A stretch of 6,648 bases of DNA from a virus (lineage: Duplodnaviria; Heunggongvirae; Uroviricota; Caudoviricetes), in the IMG/VR virus record IMGVR_UViG_2526164689_000017, positions 1 through 6,648 of that record; one strand, written 5' to 3'. The notes under the pieces are model-generated. The model searched no databases. It was not told the DNA's origin and was given only the letters and a program-made list of their open reading frames with translations. The translations under genes were made by a program, and so were the position numbers. This document shows, piece by piece, positions 1 through 6,648 of this stretch. Numbering within the stretch: position 1 is the first letter of the stretch; each line of letters begins with the position of its first letter.

Positions 1-217
1 CTGCATAGCTGAATGACGTCACCATCCCCAGCGTATCCGTAAACTCATAACGGTATTTCACGTTAATCCCGTTAAGATTATCGCTACCGGGAGCGTTCGT
101 CCGGGCATGAAGATACCCCGCGCTCAGCGTGGCCTGCTGCTCAGACGCCCATGCAGGCGCGCCGGATACGGCCAGACAGATGGCTGCGGACAAAATGGCG
201 GCATAAAGTTTACGCAT
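1..217 (-). CDS. lom: Lom-like outer membrane protein (Ail/Lom/PagC family), N-terminal part; gene runs off the left edge of the window
   Basis: Not in the ORF track because it is truncated. Minus-strand ATG at 215-217 is preceded by GAGAGG about 5 nt upstream. My translation: MRKLYAAILSAAICLAVSGAPAWASEQQATLSAGYLHARTNAPGSDNLNGINVKYRYEFTDTLGMVTSFSYA. It has a signal-peptide-like N-terminus ending AWA, and the GINVKYRYE segment matches what I recall of lambda Lom. Position immediately downstream of J is as in lambda. Confidence 0.78.
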   Translation of the reverse strand, partial: MRKLYAAILSAAICLAVSGAPAWASEQQATLSAGYLHARTNAPGSDNLNGINVKYRYEFTDTLGMVTSFSYA

Positions 218-238: not shown

Positions 239-265
239 AATAAAAAAGGCGTCATTTCTGACGCC
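239..265 (-). terminator. Rho-independent terminator downstream of J
   Basis: Perfect 7-bp inverted repeat ggcgtca (248-254) / tgacgcc (259-265) with a 4-nt loop. On the minus strand it reads GGCGUCA-GAAA-UGACGCC followed by UUUUUUAUU (plus 239-247 aataaaaaa). It lies between the J stop (284-286) and the lom start (217). Confidence 0.7.
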
Positions 266-283
266 CGTTCTGGGTTATAAAAT

Positions 284-3200
284 TCAGCTGATACTGATAC
301 CTGCTGTGGATTTTTTCATCACCACAACCAGCAGATCGCTGATACTGGTTGTTGGTGTCCAGTTATTCGCTCCTGATGAAGATACGGTGAATGTCAGTGT
401 CAGCGTCCCCTGTCCGGCAGGCATATCTATAACTGAGGAAAATACGCCCTGAACATCCGTCGTGGACTGATTAAAAATCTCCTGACCATTGCGGGTCACT
501 CTTAACCGGCAGGTTGAATACCAGTATGACTGTTGGTTATTACTGTTGAAATTCTCATGCTTACCACCGCGGAATAACACTGGCGGTATCATGACCTGCC
601 GGTCAAACTTCTGATCATCACTGATTCTTACCGTGATGGTGCCACTGGCATAAGTGCTCGTGCGGGGGAAAGACTTGCTGACCGTTTTGACAATATCGCC
701 TTCAATCTGGTTGGCTGACAGTTTCCCCTTAATCTGACAGTTCTCATTAATCGTGACGTTGTTGAGCGTCCCTGAGTTCGCATTCACACTGCCACTGATA
801 TCCGCATTTTTCGCCGTCAGTCGCCCGTCCGGCGTCAGGGAAAATGCCGGAGGATTGCCGGATGACGTGATGCTCACCGCAAACAGTCGTTTCAGGAACA
901 CGTCGTTCATGAACAGCTGATTCCCCTGCGCCACAAATAACGGCGTGCTGTTGCCGCTCTCCGGATTTATCATCGCGATACGGTCAGCCAGCAGCAGTAT
1001 GTTGCTCAGTGGCTGGCCATCAGTATCCTCAATCCCTGCACCAATCCCGGCCACATAGGGAATGCCGTCTTTCGTTTTTTGAACCTTCAGCATGTACAGC
1101 GCAGCCAGGTCATCATTTGTGTCCTTCTGCACGCGCTGTATCTGCTGAATGGTGGCGCTCTGGTCTTCCAGCGTTTTACTGACCGTCTGTGTGATTTCAT
1201 TGCGGGTTTCTGTGATGGTGGTCTGCATTTCCGCCATCTCGTCCTTCAGCTGACTGTTGTCAATCTCTGCCCACAGCGCCTCTGCCAGATGCGTTTTTCC
1301 TATCTTTTCCCGGAAAAGTTCCAGATAGCCCGCAGCATCATTGCTCGCCCGTCCACTGGCTTCCACAAAAGCAGATTTACCCACCAGGTTGACGCTGCGC
1401 ACATAAAACCAGAAATCCTTTCCGGGCTTAATGTGCGGACCGGAGACACTCCACTGACTGCCGGTCCCCAGATAACGGGCAGAGGTTTCCACCTGTGCGG
1501 CGTCTGCAATTTTTGCCTCCGAAAACCAGAACTCAAACTGCACCGTCGGGTCATAAATGGTCAGTTTCGGGACTGCCGTTATCTGAAAATACCCCGGCGT
1601 CAGTTCAACACCGGCAGGCGCTGCCGGTGCGTTAATCCGGAACGTGGTGGTGGCGGGTTCGCCCTGCTGGCCATAGCTGTTAATCGCCCTGACCGTCAGG
1701 GTGTATTCCCCGAGAGGCAGGCCACTGAAACGGTGCTCCGTATCGGCAGTGATGGCGGTGGTCACCAGACGGCTGTCTTCTCCGCTTCCGCTGGTCAGGC
1801 GCAGACTGAAGCGCACACCCTTCACCACCCGCGGCGTGTCCCATTTCGCCTGTGCCAGATACTGACCGTCAGCCGCGCTCACCTCCACCGTCAGGTGCTG
1901 CACTGCCGGAGGGATGACGCTGTTCAGGGTGCCGCTCTGGTCGCTGTCAAAGTGCGCCCCGTTATCCACGATGGCTTCTTTTTCCGGTACGTGCTGCACT
2001 GCCGTGATGGCAAAGGTGCTGTCCGTGTTTTCCCGGATGGAGACACAGCGGAACAGGCGACGACGCAGTGACGGCAGGGAGAGTCCCCACACACCGTATG
2101 TCTCCACACCATCAGGCAGGGTGCTGACCTGTATCCGGTCCGGCGCGGGGTGTGCAGTGATGGCCACGCTCACCGGCTTACCGCTGCCGTTAATCAGGTT
2201 CACCGTGGCGGCACCTGTCTCCGGCAGGGTCACCTCACGGTCCAGTGTCAGGGTGCGGCTGGCGGCATCGATGGACAGGATACGTCCGCCGGTCATGGTC
2301 CCGGCATAGTCGTTATCACAGATTTCAATAATGTCTCCGGGTGTGTGACGCAGCCCCTGTGACCCGAGCGTGAAATCCACCGTCTGCGTTTCCAGCAGTC
2401 CGGTCTTTATCACCCACAGCCCGGCACGGTGGGCCTGACCGCGACTGGTGCAACCGAACGCATCCATCTTCAGCAGGTTGCGCCCGTAGCGCAGTATGGC
2501 TTCCGGGTCTTCCACCAGTTCCGTGGAGGTCTGCCAGCCGTTCTGCGGGTCGGTGTAATTCACCTCCACCGCCGTGTGGCGGTCCTTCAGGGCGCTGAAG
2601 CTGTAGCGAAACCCCACGCCGTTATCATCCACCACCACATCGCAGTTGGTGTACGGCCACACCACATCCGACGGGCGGTCCTGAACGAACGTCAGCGTCT
2701 GGCCGTTCCATACCGGCATACAGCGCATCGCCGAGCAGAAATCACTGAGAACGTCCCACGCCTTACGCTGTTGTGACAGGTACGCATTAAAGGTCATCCG
2801 CGGCTCTGTGCCCCCGAAGCCATCCGGGACACGCTGGTCACAGTACTGCCCGATGGCATACAGCGCCCATTTGTCCACGTCCGCGGCCCCCAGGCGTTTC
2901 CCCATCCCGTAGCGCGGGTGGGTCAGCATGTCCCACAGGCACCAGGCCGGGTTGTTGCTGTATGCCGGTTTCAGACTGCCGTCCCAGATACCACTGTACG
3001 TGCGTTTTTCCGGGTCATAGTTTGACGGCACCTGAATAATGCGACCGCGGATATGGTAGTTCACCGTCATCTGCTGACCGCCAAACTGCTCCGCATCCAC
3101 CTGCAGCCCCACAATCGCCGTGTTCGGGTAGCACTGTTTCACATCGATGATTTCGGTGTATGACGACCAGAGCGTCTTATTCTGCAGCTGGTCCGTGGTG

Positions 3201-3763
3201 CTGTCCGCCGTCTCCCTGACCATCCGGATGTTAAAGGGGCGCTCAGGCAGATTATCCAGAATCACCGAAGCGAGGAACTGTGAGGTGGTCTTGCCGTTAA
3301 TGGTGACATCCTTTTCCGTCACCCAGTTACCGTTACGCTGCAGCTGAATCAGCAGGCGGACGGATGCCGGGTTACGGTCACCCTGTGAGGTGGTCTGCAC
3401 CAGTGACTGCACCCCGAAGGTAACCCGCAGGCGGTCAATGTTCGCGGACGTAATGGTGCGCGTCACCGGCTTTGCCTTCGTCACTTCCACGCCCAGTGCG
3501 GTTTCAGAGCCGGATGACTCAAAACCTTCCGGCGGTGTCTGCTCCTGCTCCCCGGCGCGCCAGACCGCTGTCACACCGTGTATCACAGGATTACCGTCCG
3601 TGTCCGTCAGCGGGGTTTTGTTCACCAGAATACTCTGCAGCCCCTTCACCGGACCTTCCACCGGTCCCTCACCGATGGCGTCAATCACGCTCATCATCTG
3701 CGTGGACTTAAGATTGTCCTTTGCCTCAACCGGCGTGTGCGCCTTGCCGCCACCTTTACCCAC
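284..3763 (-). CDS. J: Central tail fibre / host specificity protein J (tip attachment protein), 1159 aa
   Basis: The track ORF begins [39 protein letters not shown], near-identical to the lambda J N-terminus as I recall it, with similarity continuing through the body (for example [50 protein letters not shown]). Start is GTG at 3761-3763 with GGAGAGGGGGA a few nt upstream on the minus strand. Stop is TGA at 284-286. Confidence 0.97.
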
Positions 3764-3798
3764 TCTGTCCCCCTCTCCTGTCTGATGTCTGAATCTGT

Positions 3799-3963
3799 TT
3801 ATGCCCCAAAAACGACAGGCACCCCGGAGGGTGCCTGTGTCATGACGGAATAAAATTTCTGAATTTCTTCACATTTTCTGTACGCCCCGTGGCAGATATC
3901 ATTCCCGGGCGTTACAGTTTTTTCGGGCCAATAAAAACAAAACCCCCTGTGGTTAATCTTCAT
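3799..3963 (-). CDS. Hypothetical small protein (54 aa) in the I-J spacer; weak candidate
   Basis: My own translation of the minus strand: ATG at 3961-3963, TAA at 3799-3801, giving [54 protein letters not shown]. Only a weak GGGA-type ribosome-binding site; uses rare AGG/AGA/GGG codons. The terminator hairpin at 3815-3838 lies inside its last 13 codons, so termination would precede the stop codon, which argues against a real gene. Confidence 0.15.
3803..3838 (-). terminator. Terminator-like hairpin between I and J, minus-strand orientation
   Basis: Perfect 10-bp inverted repeat acaggcaccc (3815-3824) / gggtgcctgt (3829-3838) with loop cgga. On the minus strand the hairpin is followed by CGUUUUUGGGG (plus 3804-3814). 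Whether it terminates or acts as a stability or processing element cannot be told from sequence. Confidence 0.5.
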
Positions 3964-3970
3964 TTTCTGT

Positions 3971-4003
3971 TCCCGCAGCCTCCATACACTGCGGGATTTT
4001 TTT
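3971..4003 (+). terminator. Terminator-like hairpin with U-tract in plus-strand orientation, just 3' of the I stop codon
   Basis: 8-bp stem tcccgcag (3971-3978) / ctgcggga (3989-3996) with a 10-nt loop cctccataca, followed on the plus strand by seven T (3997-4003). On the minus strand the tract is A-rich upstream of the stem, so the signal is plus-oriented, antisense to the tail operon. Confidence 0.4.
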
Positions 4004-4008
4004 ATGCT

Positions 4009-4689
4009 TTACCCCTGCCGCCCGATAACCACCACCTTCCCGCCACCACCTTCATCACGGGTGCTGATGTCCTGGGAGATTCGCCGGGAGCCAACCAGCA
4101 TTTCACCGTAAGGCACCGGCATCGGGTTCCCCTGGGCAATCATGTTATCCAGCGAGGAAAAGTACGTGTTCTGTCTGCCGTTATCCGTTGCCCTGTATTC
4201 CGGTGTTTTTGGCTTCGGGGCAAGCATCTGTGCCACACCACCCAGTATCATGCTGGCCCCCAGTGAAAACAGCATCGTGGTGGCAGAAAAACCACCGGCT
4301 GCCAGGGCTGAACCCCATAACGCCATTGATGCCCCGGCCGTGAAGAACGACCCCACGATGGCTGCCGCCCCCAGCACAATCTGCAGTCCGCCCTTTCCGG
4401 CTCCGGCCAGTCGCGGCACAATATGGATGACCGCCCCCTCACCCAGAGGTTCGTGAAGACGGGCGTACACCGCCTCCGGTGCCGTGTCCTCACCGCGAAT
4501 ACGTATCTGGTACCAGCCTTCGTTCATCTGACGGCGGAATCCCGGCACCTGTAACGACAGCGCCCGGATGGCTTCCGCTGCCGTGTTCACATACAGGCTG
4601 AGGCGGCGGCCAAATCGTTGCAAATCCCCGTGAAGGCAGATGCGTGCCAGTGGCGGTGACGCCAGACAGAATGCGTTCGTCGTTGCCAT
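4009..4689 (-). CDS. I: Tail assembly protein I, 226 aa
   Basis: The track ORF begins MATTNAFCLASPPLARICLHGDLQRFGRRLSLYVNTAAEAIRAL and ends in a Gly/Ala-rich hydrophobic segment, closely matching lambda I as recalled. Stop is TAA at 4009-4011. The start overlaps the 3' end of K by 103 nt in another frame. Confidence 0.93.
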   Translation of the reverse strand: MATTNAFCLASPPLARICLHGDLQRFGRRLSLYVNTAAEAIRALSLQVPGFRRQMNEGWYQIRIRGEDTAPEAVYARLHEPLGEGAVIHIVPRLAGAGKGGLQIVLGAAAIVGSFFTAGASMALWGSALAAGGFSATTMLFSLGASMILGGVAQMLAPKPKTPEYRATDNGRQNTYFSSLDNMIAQGNPMPVPYGEMLVGSRRISQDISTRDEGGGGKVVVIGRQG

Positions 4690-5330
4690 TTTTCGGAATA
4701 CCTCTCCCGTTTACTCAGTTGTTCAGGCAGATGGTGAAGCAGCTCACCGTTGCCGCAGTATATGGCGGCATGATTGGCCACCGATGCGCCAAAGCAGCAC
4801 AGCAGGATATCGCCAGGCTGTGCGGAAGGCAGGGAAATCCTGTAAAAACCAGTCGCCTCCATATTGTCCAGGTACAGGTTCTGACCGTTGCGCCACCAGT
4901 CATCCTCACGCTCAAAATCCGGCATATCAATTCCCGCCAGATGGTATGCATCCCGGAACAGCGTGTAACAGTCCGTCACCCCGTGCTCAAAGCGCCGTCC
5001 TGTCAGATGCGGCACACAGCGGAATTTATGAATCTCACCCCGGCAGACCAGCCACCAGGACAGTGCACTCTGCATCTGCAGCCGCCGGTCGGCCTCACTC
5101 AGCCAGGGCAGACCACCGGGATGACTGTGGACCAGTGCCACAATCTCCCCCTGCATTTCTGCCCGCAGCCAGTCTTCCGGTGCAATACGAAAATACGCCT
5201 CCGGCTCTGCAGAGATATTCACACAAGGGATATACCGCTCCCCCTCCGGCGTTCTCACCACGAAGCCGCACGACTCCGCAGGCGCACACCGCCGGGCATG
5301 CGCCAGAATCGCTGATTCAGTCTGTGTCAT
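4587..5330 (-). CDS. K: Tail assembly protein K, 247 aa from the internal Met of the 334-aa track ORF
   Basis: The segment from MTQTESAILAHARRCAPAESCGFVV onward matches lambda K as recalled. It contains a JAMM/MPN metalloprotease motif (HSHPGGLPWLSEAD, HxHx7Sx2D) and an NlpC/P60-like Cys/His pair (DCYTLF and NHAAIY). ATG at 5328-5330 lies 10 nt after the L stop. The upstream 87 codons of the track ORF overlap L and are rejected. Confidence 0.92.
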   Translation of the reverse strand: MTQTESAILAHARRCAPAESCGFVVRTPEGERYIPCVNISAEPEAYFRIAPEDWLRAEMQGEIVALVHSHPGGLPWLSEADRRLQMQSALSWWLVCRGEIHKFRCVPHLTGRRFEHGVTDCYTLFRDAYHLAGIDMPDFEREDDWWRNGQNLYLDNMEATGFYRISLPSAQPGDILLCCFGASVANHAAIYCGNGELLHHLPEQLSKRERYSEKWQRRTHSVWRHRHWHASAFTGICNDLAAASACM

Positions 5331-5340
5331 AAACCGGGAT

Positions 5341-6039
5341 TTACTGCGAAAGTTTATTAATGGAAAGGAAACCGCCAAAATTAGCCACCATGCCGCGCAT
5401 CTCACACCCGCGCATGCACTTGCTGCATCTGTCCTTACGGATATCGGTGGTGGGTTTATCGAACTCATCCGCCACAGCCCCGCCCGTGTAACCACACTCA
5501 TCAGAGCGGTAGGTCCACATACAGGTATTCGCCAGCATAATGCGACCGGGAAACAGCGCTCCGTCCGTCTCCGTCGGTGTTGCCAGCACAAACGAGGCTG
5601 TCATGGCCGTCAGCTCTGACATCTGCTCCACCACCCAGCGGTCGCTCAGCTCCTGCTCCGGGTCCGCTTCCGGATTGCCCGCCACAAAATTCACCGCATC
5701 CAGAAAACGGGCATACACCCGGCGGCGGACCACCGTGGCCCCCACCAGGCTCTGCAGGTCCTCCGCCATCCCGGTGACCAGACCAAACAGATTCGACACC
5801 GTCAGCGACGGGCGGGCACTGCTGCCCTTCCCGTTCATCTCAAAGCCACTGCCGTCAATCGGGTATGCCTGGTACTTCCGCCCCTGCCAGGTCACCGGCT
5901 CCCCTTTTTCATTCAGCTCATTACAGAAAAAATACCGCTCACCACCCTGGGCCTTCAGGTCAATTTCCCAGAGCACCACCCGCGGTGACTGCTCTGATTT
6001 AACCGACTCGTTCAGGCTTTCCCCGTGAATATGCTGCAT
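5341..6039 (-). CDS. L: Minor tail protein L, 232 aa
   Basis: The track ORF starts MQHIHGESLNESVKSEQSPRVVLWEIDLKAQGGERYFFCNELNEKGEPVTWQGRKYQ and ends FGGFLSINKLSQ, closely matching lambda L as recalled. The ATG overlaps the M stop as ATGA. Confidence 0.95.
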   Translation of the reverse strand: MQHIHGESLNESVKSEQSPRVVLWEIDLKAQGGERYFFCNELNEKGEPVTWQGRKYQAYPIDGSGFEMNGKGSSARPSLTVSNLFGLVTGMAEDLQSLVGATVVRRRVYARFLDAVNFVAGNPEADPEQELSDRWVVEQMSELTAMTASFVLATPTETDGALFPGRIMLANTCMWTYRSDECGYTGGAVADEFDKPTTDIRKDRCSKCMRGCEMRGMVANFGGFLSINKLSQ

Positions 6040-6380
6040 CAGTTCACCACCTGCTCAATCGTACAGCTGAAATCACTGTACCGGACGTTATCCGTGACGC
6101 TCCACTCCCGGCACACCACCCTCACCGTCCGGTTATGTTTCGGCGGTCGCCACAAAAAGGCACGGTAACCACCATGCCAGGATAAAAATTCATCCAGCCA
6201 GCGCCGGGTTGACTCATCCGTCACCCGGAACACCGCCTGAAACGTCTTCAGTTGAGGATTCAGTCCTGTGGGGCGACGCTGTTCATAACCGTCACCAAAC
6301 CGTACCCTCGCCACCGACGGTTTCTCACTCACCTGCATCCCTTCACGCGGGACCAGATGCAGCGTTTTTATCTCAGCCAC
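6039..6380 (-). CDS. M: Minor tail protein M, 113 aa
   Basis: The track ORF contains VRFGDGYEQRRP and ends CTIEQVVN, matching lambda M (VRFGDGY... EQVVN) as recalled. GTG start at 6378-6380 overlaps the H stop at 6373-6375. Position between H and L fits. Confidence 0.9.
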   Translation of the reverse strand: MAEIKTLHLVPREGMQVSEKPSVARVRFGDGYEQRRPTGLNPQLKTFQAVFRVTDESTRRWLDEFLSWHGGYRAFLWRPPKHNRTVRVVCREWSVTDNVRYSDFSCTIEQVVN

Positions 6381-6648
6381 TCAGCATTCCTCCGTCACGT
6401 CGCATGGACAGCATCACCGCCTGCACCCGCTGGTCAATCAGCTGCACAAGACTGCCTGCCGCCTCCGCCCCTATCTGTCCGTTAGCCCCGTCATTCTGAA
6501 TGGCGATGTGGTAGACCGGGGAATACACCAGACCGGCACTGCCGTTCATACTGCCCACCGCGCGTACGCCCAGCGAGCCATCCGCCGCCCGGGTCAGGGG
6601 CATAATGGCTTCAGGTCCGGCTTCCCCCATCAGCCCGGCCCTTTGCAA
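6373..6648 (-). CDS. H: Tail tape measure protein H, C-terminal part; gene continues beyond the right edge of the window
   Basis: Open frame to the window edge on the minus strand, in the gene position of lambda H immediately upstream of M. The C-terminal segment IQNDGANGQIGAEAAG...MRRDGGMLSG resembles the lambda H C-terminus as I recall it. Stop is TGA at 6373-6375. Confidence 0.82.
   Translation of the reverse strand: MQRAGLMGEAGPEAIMPLTRAADGSLGVRAVGSMNGSAGLVYSPVYHIAIQNDGANGQIGAEAAGSLVQLIDQRVQAVMLSMRRDGGMLSG

Follow-up and report, generated by a model that had tools for sequence, protein, structure and literature searches.

Background

The C-terminal specificity region of J, the tip attachment protein or central tail fibre, has been known for decades to set receptor choice. 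J of phage lambda (1132 aa; structures 8xcj and 8xck) is a LamB binder, and Maddamsetti et al. (PMC6646904), who delimited the "specificity region" as lambda residues 960-1132, identified hotspots of indels and variation at lambda residues 1012, 1048/49, 1077/78 and 1107 among 1,207 natural J homologues. The loops of OmpC clash with the lambda domain in its open state (Ge and Wang). Phage 21 also uses LamB natively, and gains the use of OmpC by the single substitution I1025T, at a residue lying above the domain on the trimer axis (PMC11336670).

Several J tips that recognize OmpC have been described. The phage vB_EcoS_phi330 (phi330) is a naturally occurring lambdoid Stx2a siphophage of EHEC with a long tail. 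For this phage, the ompC knockout was the only one of 54 Keio knockouts of outer membrane proteins that was not lysed, while plaquing was brought back by chromosomal Plac-ompC (PMC12502783). A8 is a chimera that joins the first 964 residues of lambda gpJ to the tip of a natural E. coli prophage gpJ, obtained by amplifying the C-termini of gpJ variants from E. coli strains (Brödel et al., Nature 2024; PMC11338833); the screen used a lamB-deleted recipient with the chromosomal ompC deleted and ompC supplied from a plasmid (PMC11338833). A8 delivers DNA into lamB-deleted cells via OmpC, depending on the OmpC variant expressed (those of EDL933 and MG1655 are among the variants bound), and together with another chimera, 1A2, which also delivers through OmpC, it covers 21 of 23 OmpC variants (PMC11338833). 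Two PDB entries deal with the A8 protein: 9wca, entitled "Closed state of A8 gpJ 713 central tail fiber", and the cryo-EM complex 9wcb (released 2026-01-28), entitled [quoted passage not shown]. A literature search for a paper on these two entries found none, and they are known here by their titles. A literature search for the "PhiR" ECOR phages, whose J tips are related, likewise gave no relevant result, and a 2026 preprint on receptor prediction covers GpJ of the Drexlerviridae type and holds no lambdoid data.

The window analysed here is a stretch of 6,648 nucleotides that corresponds to the entire contig AIGI01000031.1 of the E. coli DEC8D draft genome. It encodes a complete J protein (EHW25062.1/WP_000514870.1), whose C-terminal part had been predicted from the nucleotide sequence to diverge from lambda J. 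The coordinates of the features discussed below are listed in Table 1.

Table 1. Features of the window, ordered by position.
Feature	Positions	Strand	Details
lom, start of gene (Ail/Lom outer membrane protein)	1..217	minus	cut by contig end; PF06316, E = 1.6e-37; ATG 215-217
Terminator-like hairpin, J-lom spacer	247..266	minus	8-bp stem with 5 GC pairs, then TTTTTTA
J (tip attachment protein/central tail fibre)	284..3763	minus	1159 aa, intact; GTG start, TGA stop at 284-286
Exchangeable specificity cassette (tip)	287..790	minus	J residues 992-1159; matches the A8 donor part after lambda G964, within lambda 960-1132
Ig-like receptor-binding domain	287..658	minus	residues 1036-1159; PF12421 (Ig_GpJ_C), E = 4e-36
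Loop L4, predicted receptor-facing	335..373	minus	residues 1131-1143; 4/13 as in lambda, 1-residue deletion adjoining; hotspot 1107
Loop L3 (TDVQ), predicted receptor-facing	449..460	minus	residues 1102-1105; 0/4 as in lambda; hotspot 1077/78
Loop L2 (NFNSNNQQS), predicted receptor-facing	527..553	minus	residues 1071-1079; 0/9 as in lambda, 5-residue insertion; hotspot 1048/49
Loop L1, predicted receptor-facing	644..673	minus	residues 1031-1040; 4/10 as in lambda, 4 residues shorter; lambda hotspot 1012
Conserved junction, likely crossover site	737..808	minus	residues 986-1009
Alpha-helical shaft region with 28-aa insertion relative to lambda	1169..1261	minus	J residues ~835-865; MAFFT alignments
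I	4009..4689	minus	
K	4587..5330	minus	
L	5341..6039	minus	
M	6039..6380	minus	
H, end (tape-measure gene)	6373..6648	minus	

The J protein and its similarity to lambda J

The J protein of the window aligns with lambda J from end to end and collinearly (BLASTP: 65% identity over 1164 columns, E = 0). It contains the Pfam domains FNIII-A_GpJ, Phage-tail_3, Ig_J, Ig_J_second, Phage_Tail_Tip and Ig_GpJ_C (PF24801, PF13550, PF24421, PF24489, PF09327 and PF12421), each above its cut-off and all in the order found in lambda-type J proteins. By analogy with the structures known for lambda and A8, it would assemble into a trimer at the tip of the tail and trigger DNA ejection.

The similarity to lambda J is unevenly distributed (identity in residues 1-600: 76.0%; 601-810: 66.7%; 811-900: 35.5%; 901-991: 71.4%; 992-1159, hereafter the tip: 48.5%). 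In bins of 50 columns it amounts to 70-88% over most of 1-800 and to 88% at 950-1000, and drops to 39-47% in the last ~110 residues. With residues 811-900 excluded, 79 of 163 aligned tip residues are identical to lambda vs 661 of 901 in the remaining J (Fisher p = 1e-9). The pairwise alignment thus upholds the original prediction that the C-terminal region has diverged from lambda J, the identity of the tip being well below that of the rest of the protein rather than equal to it. The extent of the divergent part had been put at ~130 residues, starting from a segment that begins with KFDRQVM; this segment starts at residue 1052, 108 residues from the end, and the divergence actually sets in near residues 1003-1010, so here the estimate has to be revised. 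The positions 284-800 for which the divergence was predicted nearly equal the specificity region of Maddamsetti et al. (PMC6646904). The N-terminal and central parts, described as lambda-like, are mostly so, except for the patch of residues 811-900, which went unmentioned and is more divergent than the tip.

The J protein is longer than its lambda counterpart, as had been noticed, but the implied connection of the additional length with the C-terminus turned out to be wrong. Most of the 27 additional residues are explained by a 28-aa insertion in the region called the "alpha-helical shaft" by Ge and Wang, while the tip adds only small indels (-4, +5, -1). J of phage 21 and every EHEC-type J protein contain the insertion, which is absent from lambda and from the lambda-h434 hybrid.

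Tip classes and the closest relatives

A sequence search of the PDB with the last 338 residues of J reported the "A8 gpJ 713" chains (9wca, 9wcb), of which the N-terminal part is derived from lambda, as the best matches. Throughout the segment following lambda G964, the tip is nearly identical to the A8 donor part (165/168 residues, 98.2%; differences S1036N, T1037S and V1104A) and to phi330 (167/168 residues, 99.4%), from which it differs solely by V1104A (V in the window, A in phi330).

In our sequence comparisons, the J tips across phage records fall into discrete classes, and those of the long-tailed EHEC/Stx prophages into a few of them. The class of the window, A8 and phi330 (at least 97% identity to the window tip) uses OmpC, and the phage 21 class (82%) uses LamB; the Stx1_499 class exhibits 77% identity to the window tip. 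The WGPS2 class (64-68%) is probably, on weak evidence, that of 1A2, and its receptor would in that case be OmpC: the 3' end of 1A2 is closest to WGPS2-type tips (60% vs at most 44% for the others), a result that is only indicative, as it was obtained by tblastn with an error-laden query sequence. The most distant are the h434 class (49-52%; receptor OmpC) and the lambda class (46-49%; receptor LamB).

A8 and the window tip share the same fold, and the two proteins differ upstream, where A8 possesses the N-terminal 964 residues of lambda, without the 28-aa shaft insertion found in the window J. The J protein of phi330 (PV189401) is 100% identical to that of the window in residues 901-991 and only 79% identical in residues 601-810; unlike the window, phi330 contains an extra gene between I and J. 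Phage 21 (OL657228) is the closest classical lambdoid phage. It has the same shaft insertion and, as far as the loops can be assigned from the model described below, identical L2 and L4, but its tip (82.1% identity) differs from that of the window at 30 positions, some of them in the predicted loops L1 and L3, and the phage uses LamB natively.

The tip of lambda h434 (OM418627) belongs to the same domain family and also uses OmpC, yet its identity to the window tip is 51.5%, far from what would be expected of members of one 434-type class; it is about as distant from the window tip as that of lambda. The 434-type tip is a separate OmpC-binding class. Lambda J shares with the window J the PF12421 domain with its Ig-like fold, the overall architecture, the DDxxFDRQ, NG and DMPAG motifs and the C-terminal strand, and differs from it in the sequence of the tip; the receptor of lambda J is LamB and not OmpC.

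Structure of the receptor-binding domain

The C-terminal domain was modelled by AlphaFold2 as a monomer (residues 960-1159, alignment of 17 homologues). The pLDDT values are 80-96 in the domain, while the trimeric fibre part is poorly predicted, which is to be expected of a monomer model. Foldseek searches of the PDB with the model reported 9wca and 9wcb as the top matches (E = 5e-25 and 1e-23), followed by the lambda structures 8xck and 8xcj (52% identity); the match to 9wcb has a TM score of 0.74 at 98% identity. The best matches of the model are thus the solved A8 domain, and the Ig-like fold of lambda is retained in the prediction. The modelled domain is a beta-sandwich, in which the strands alternately leave and return to the fibre.

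The Ur-lambda structure paper does not delimit the J loops at the level of residues, and they were therefore assigned from the model: loops were designated as receptor-facing or fibre-facing according to the alternation of strands in the monomer, together with the description of the lambda structure. The four putative receptor-facing loops, L1 to L4, coincide with the four hotspots of Maddamsetti et al. In total, only 8 of their 36 residues (22%) are identical to lambda, as compared with 32 of 76 (42%) in the beta-strands of the domain and 10 of 13 (77%) in the putative fibre-facing loops (DDQKFD, NG and PAGQG). All gaps in the alignment of the domain with lambda are located in or adjoining L1, L2 and L4, and the lowest-pLDDT block within the domain is L2. 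The loops are accordingly not lambda-like, as they would be in a member of the lambda LamB-binding class.

The model therefore suggests that the divergence from lambda is concentrated in four loops that would face the receptor. The scattered motifs that the original prediction had listed as shared with lambda J (VIDMPAG and the ISIS/ISVV end) prove to be conserved, and would from this distribution represent the core of the domain and its fibre-facing side.

Receptor specificity

Because the near-identical tips of phi330 and A8 use OmpC, we consider it highly probable that the last 168 residues of J are an OmpC-binding cassette of the A8/phi330 class, and not a LamB-binding one; the OmpC dependence is taken over from those proteins on the strength of the sequence match. 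Of the two consequences that had been proposed for the divergence of the tip, a different receptor is thus favoured by the experiments on phi330 and A8, while a different LamB allele specificity finds no support for this tip allele. The use of OmpC by the phage 21-type substitution I1025T was also considered as a candidate route and rejected: the window retains isoleucine at the equivalent residue 1024, and its OmpC specificity would therefore not be achieved in that way.

The similarity to phage 21 nevertheless raises the question of whether the tip might, like that phage, still recognize LamB, either in another allelic form or alongside OmpC. The phage 21 tip, with LamB as its native receptor, is 82.1% identical to that of the window and identical in the predicted loops L2 and L4, V1104 is common to both and replaced by alanine in phi330 and A8, and receptor choice in the phage 21/A8 clade can hinge on very few residues, as it shifts with one to few mutations. 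On the other hand, phi330, only one residue away from the window tip, does not lyse the ompC knockout despite the presence of LamB in that strain, A8 was selected on a lamB-deleted recipient, and natural Stx1a phages and EHEC genomes commonly carry tips 100% identical to that of the window, all of which makes retention of LamB as a receptor very improbable. Likewise, since such identical tips are widespread in natural Stx phages, a receptor changed with respect to phi330 and A8 is unlikely, while a shift in the range of OmpC alleles is possible. There is a modest chance that small natural variation within the A8/phi330 class tunes the usable OmpC alleles or leaves some residual use of LamB. 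The three differences from A8 are all found among the 36 residues predicted to face the receptor, two of them (1036 and 1037) in L1 and the third, V1104, which is also the only difference from phi330, in L3. If the tuning is real, the comparison of phage 21 (LamB) with the A8 type (OmpC), which agree exactly in L2 and L4, would narrow the switch to L1, L3 and a few residues of the strands.

With OmpC as the preferred receptor, the following mode of action can be proposed. The C-terminal Ig-like domains of the J trimer at the tail tip would direct their four variable loops towards the cell surface, where these would bind OmpC, a trimeric porin, instead of LamB. By analogy with lambda, binding may spread the three domains apart, and the change may travel upwards through the beta-prism fibre and helical shaft, so that the tail tip opens and DNA is ejected. 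The signalling steps following receptor binding are transferred here from lambda with LamB, the only system for which they are known.

Origin of the tip

The cassette probably entered the J gene by homologous recombination at the conserved junction of residues 986-1009, which is almost invariant in lambda, h434, phage 21 and EHEC-type J proteins. The J proteins of WGPS2 and Stx1_499 are 98% identical to that of the window in residues 1-600, but only 67-77% identical in the tip, and the identity collapses just 3' of the junction. Comparison with WGPS2 revealed dS of 0.09 for residues 2-600 and of 1.0 for the tip. Because dS jumps at the conserved junction, these data indicate that the tip is a cassette recombined between old allele classes rather than a product of fast local divergence. 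In the J genes compared, backbone and tip, as judged from the alignments, do not travel together. The same junction stretch was chosen as the fusion point for A8.

Divergence in place from a lambda-like ancestor, driven by fast positive selection on host range, could be expected for a region on which diversifying selection is known to act and in which host-range mutations obtained in the laboratory cluster (PMC6646904). However, in the comparison with lambda, dS in the tip rises together with dN (dS 1.95 in the tip vs 0.86-1.17 elsewhere; dN 0.48 vs 0.17-0.26), which leaves dN/dS near 0.25 in both the tip and the rest of J. Added to the jump of dS against WGPS2 at the junction, the GC content of the cassette is 11 points lower than that of the remaining J (0.476 vs 0.590), and the phylogeny of the tip departs from that of the backbone, as exemplified by WGPS2 and Stx1_499. 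Accelerated evolution in place was rejected on the basis of dS, and we find it hardly credible as the source of this tip.

Distribution of the tip allele

Among complete E. coli genome records, 684 contain the 517-bp segment for which the divergence had been predicted (positions 284-800) at 99% identity or more, and about 2,200 at 90% or more, in up to 11 places per genome. The segment is 100% identical in many complete genomes of O157:H7, O145:H28 and other strains and in Stx1a phages, and the 168-aa tip is likewise 100% identical in Stx1a phages, e.g. Stx1_120412. The OmpC-binding tip class is already known from genetics, engineering and a solved structure, and the window tip is a copy of a very common allele. 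Thus, the tip class found at this level of identity in the 684 records can be annotated as OmpC-binding, which is relevant for predicting the strains that can be lysogenised by Stx1 and Stx2 siphophages and for designing lambda-based delivery particles.

Integrity and gene context of the contig

The window is a whole draft contig of 6,648 bp flanked by repeated prophage sequence, and EHEC strains contain up to 11-15 related copies per genome. The exact J protein is on record for this one contig only, no complete E. coli genome matches the whole window above 96.6%, and upstream of nucleotide ~1450 no relative is matched evenly, the identity to each of them ranging from 85 to 100% per 200 bp. 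One could therefore suspect that J as assembled is partly an artefact, or that it comes from a defective prophage, in which case this exact protein may not function in a virion and the tip would still be a genuine allele. Against this, the six tail ORFs are all intact and in the lambda order, the 3' 1,450 bp of the window, and with them the entire tip, are 100% identical to the Stx1a phage Stx1_111698, and lambdoid prophages of a common host normally show mosaicism on a fine scale. We regard an artefact or a defective prophage as a doubtful explanation; the full-length mosaic of J may not be real, which leaves the tip unaffected.

Analysis of the ORFs and of their Pfam matches identified the window as a distal tail region of a lambdoid prophage, with M, L, K, I and Lom around J in the lambda order H-M-L-K-I-J-lom. 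The spacer between J and lom contains a terminator-like hairpin, and a terminator is annotated at the same place in phage 21.

Relationship of the J tip to other tip classes

The tip of the J protein (residues 992-1159, assigned to the class represented by A8, a lambda gpJ chimera that delivers via OmpC, and the OmpC-dependent Stx2a phage phi330) differs from that of A8 by only three amino acids (residues 1036, 1037 and 1104). Each of these positions belongs to the set of 36 residues, out of 168, that are predicted from a monomer AF2 model to face the receptor (loops L1-L4). The chance of such clustering, if the differences were evenly spread, is about 0.01, which hints at fine-tuning within the A8-type class. 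In the same model-based assignment, loops L2 and L4 of the putatively OmpC-binding tip are identical to those of phage 21, whose native receptor is LamB; the 30 differences between these two tips are located in L1, L3 and the strands.

The 434-type tip, found in lambda h434 imm21 (3501..4016), uses OmpC as the A8/phi330 class does, yet it exhibits only 51.5% identity to the tip analyzed here (and 43.9% to that of lambda). Thus, OmpC binding is found in at least two distinct classes of J tips, and probably in three.

Features of the window discussed in this section
Feature	Position (nt)	Strand	Remarks
J-lom terminator-like hairpin	266..247	-	GGGCGTCA-GAAA-TGACGCCT then TTTTTTA
Loop L4	335..373	-	
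J residue 1104	452..454	-	differs from A8
Loop L2	527..553	-	
J residues 1036, 1037	653..658	-	differ from A8
Insertion in the J alpha-helical shaft	1169..1261	-	28 aa vs lambda; J residues ~835-865
I-J spacer	3764..4008		245 bp, vs about 60 bp in lambda
Strong terminator-like hairpin in the I-J spacer	3838..3815	-	10-bp stem, 7 GC pairs, followed by a T-run
Overlap of I (226-aa frame) and K end	4587..4689	-	about 100 nt

Insertion in the helical shaft

The shaft insertion is present in phage 21 and in all EHEC-type J proteins, and is missing from the J proteins of lambda and lambda-h434. Because residues 841-861 of the lambda shaft refold into beta-strands on tail opening, a shaft four heptads longer than that of lambda might alter the geometry of triggering.

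Spacers, gene starts and origin of the contig

The I-J spacer is 100% identical to that of several Stx1a phages. YYZ-2008, Stx2a_WGPS8 and phi330 each match the window in two pieces, with an anti-repressor (Ant) gene annotated inside the matched region, and some relatives therefore appear to carry additional genes inserted around this spacer. The hairpin of the J-lom spacer follows the stop codon of J and precedes the ribosome-binding site of lom, a position at which phage 21 has an annotated terminator. The longest reading frame of I (226 aa, ATG at 4689, minus strand) overlaps the end of K, as is also the case for K and I of lambda; the public gene call places the start later, at 4590, and predicts a protein of 193 aa.

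The window corresponds to the entire contig AIGI01000031.1 (6,648 bp) in the draft assembly of E. coli DEC8D. This exact J protein is on record for that contig alone, and none of the complete genomes searched matched the window at more than 96.6%. Compared with each of the relatives examined, the window is a fine mosaic upstream of nt ~1450; this pattern could result either from real gene conversion among co-resident prophages or from a collapsed assembly repeat.
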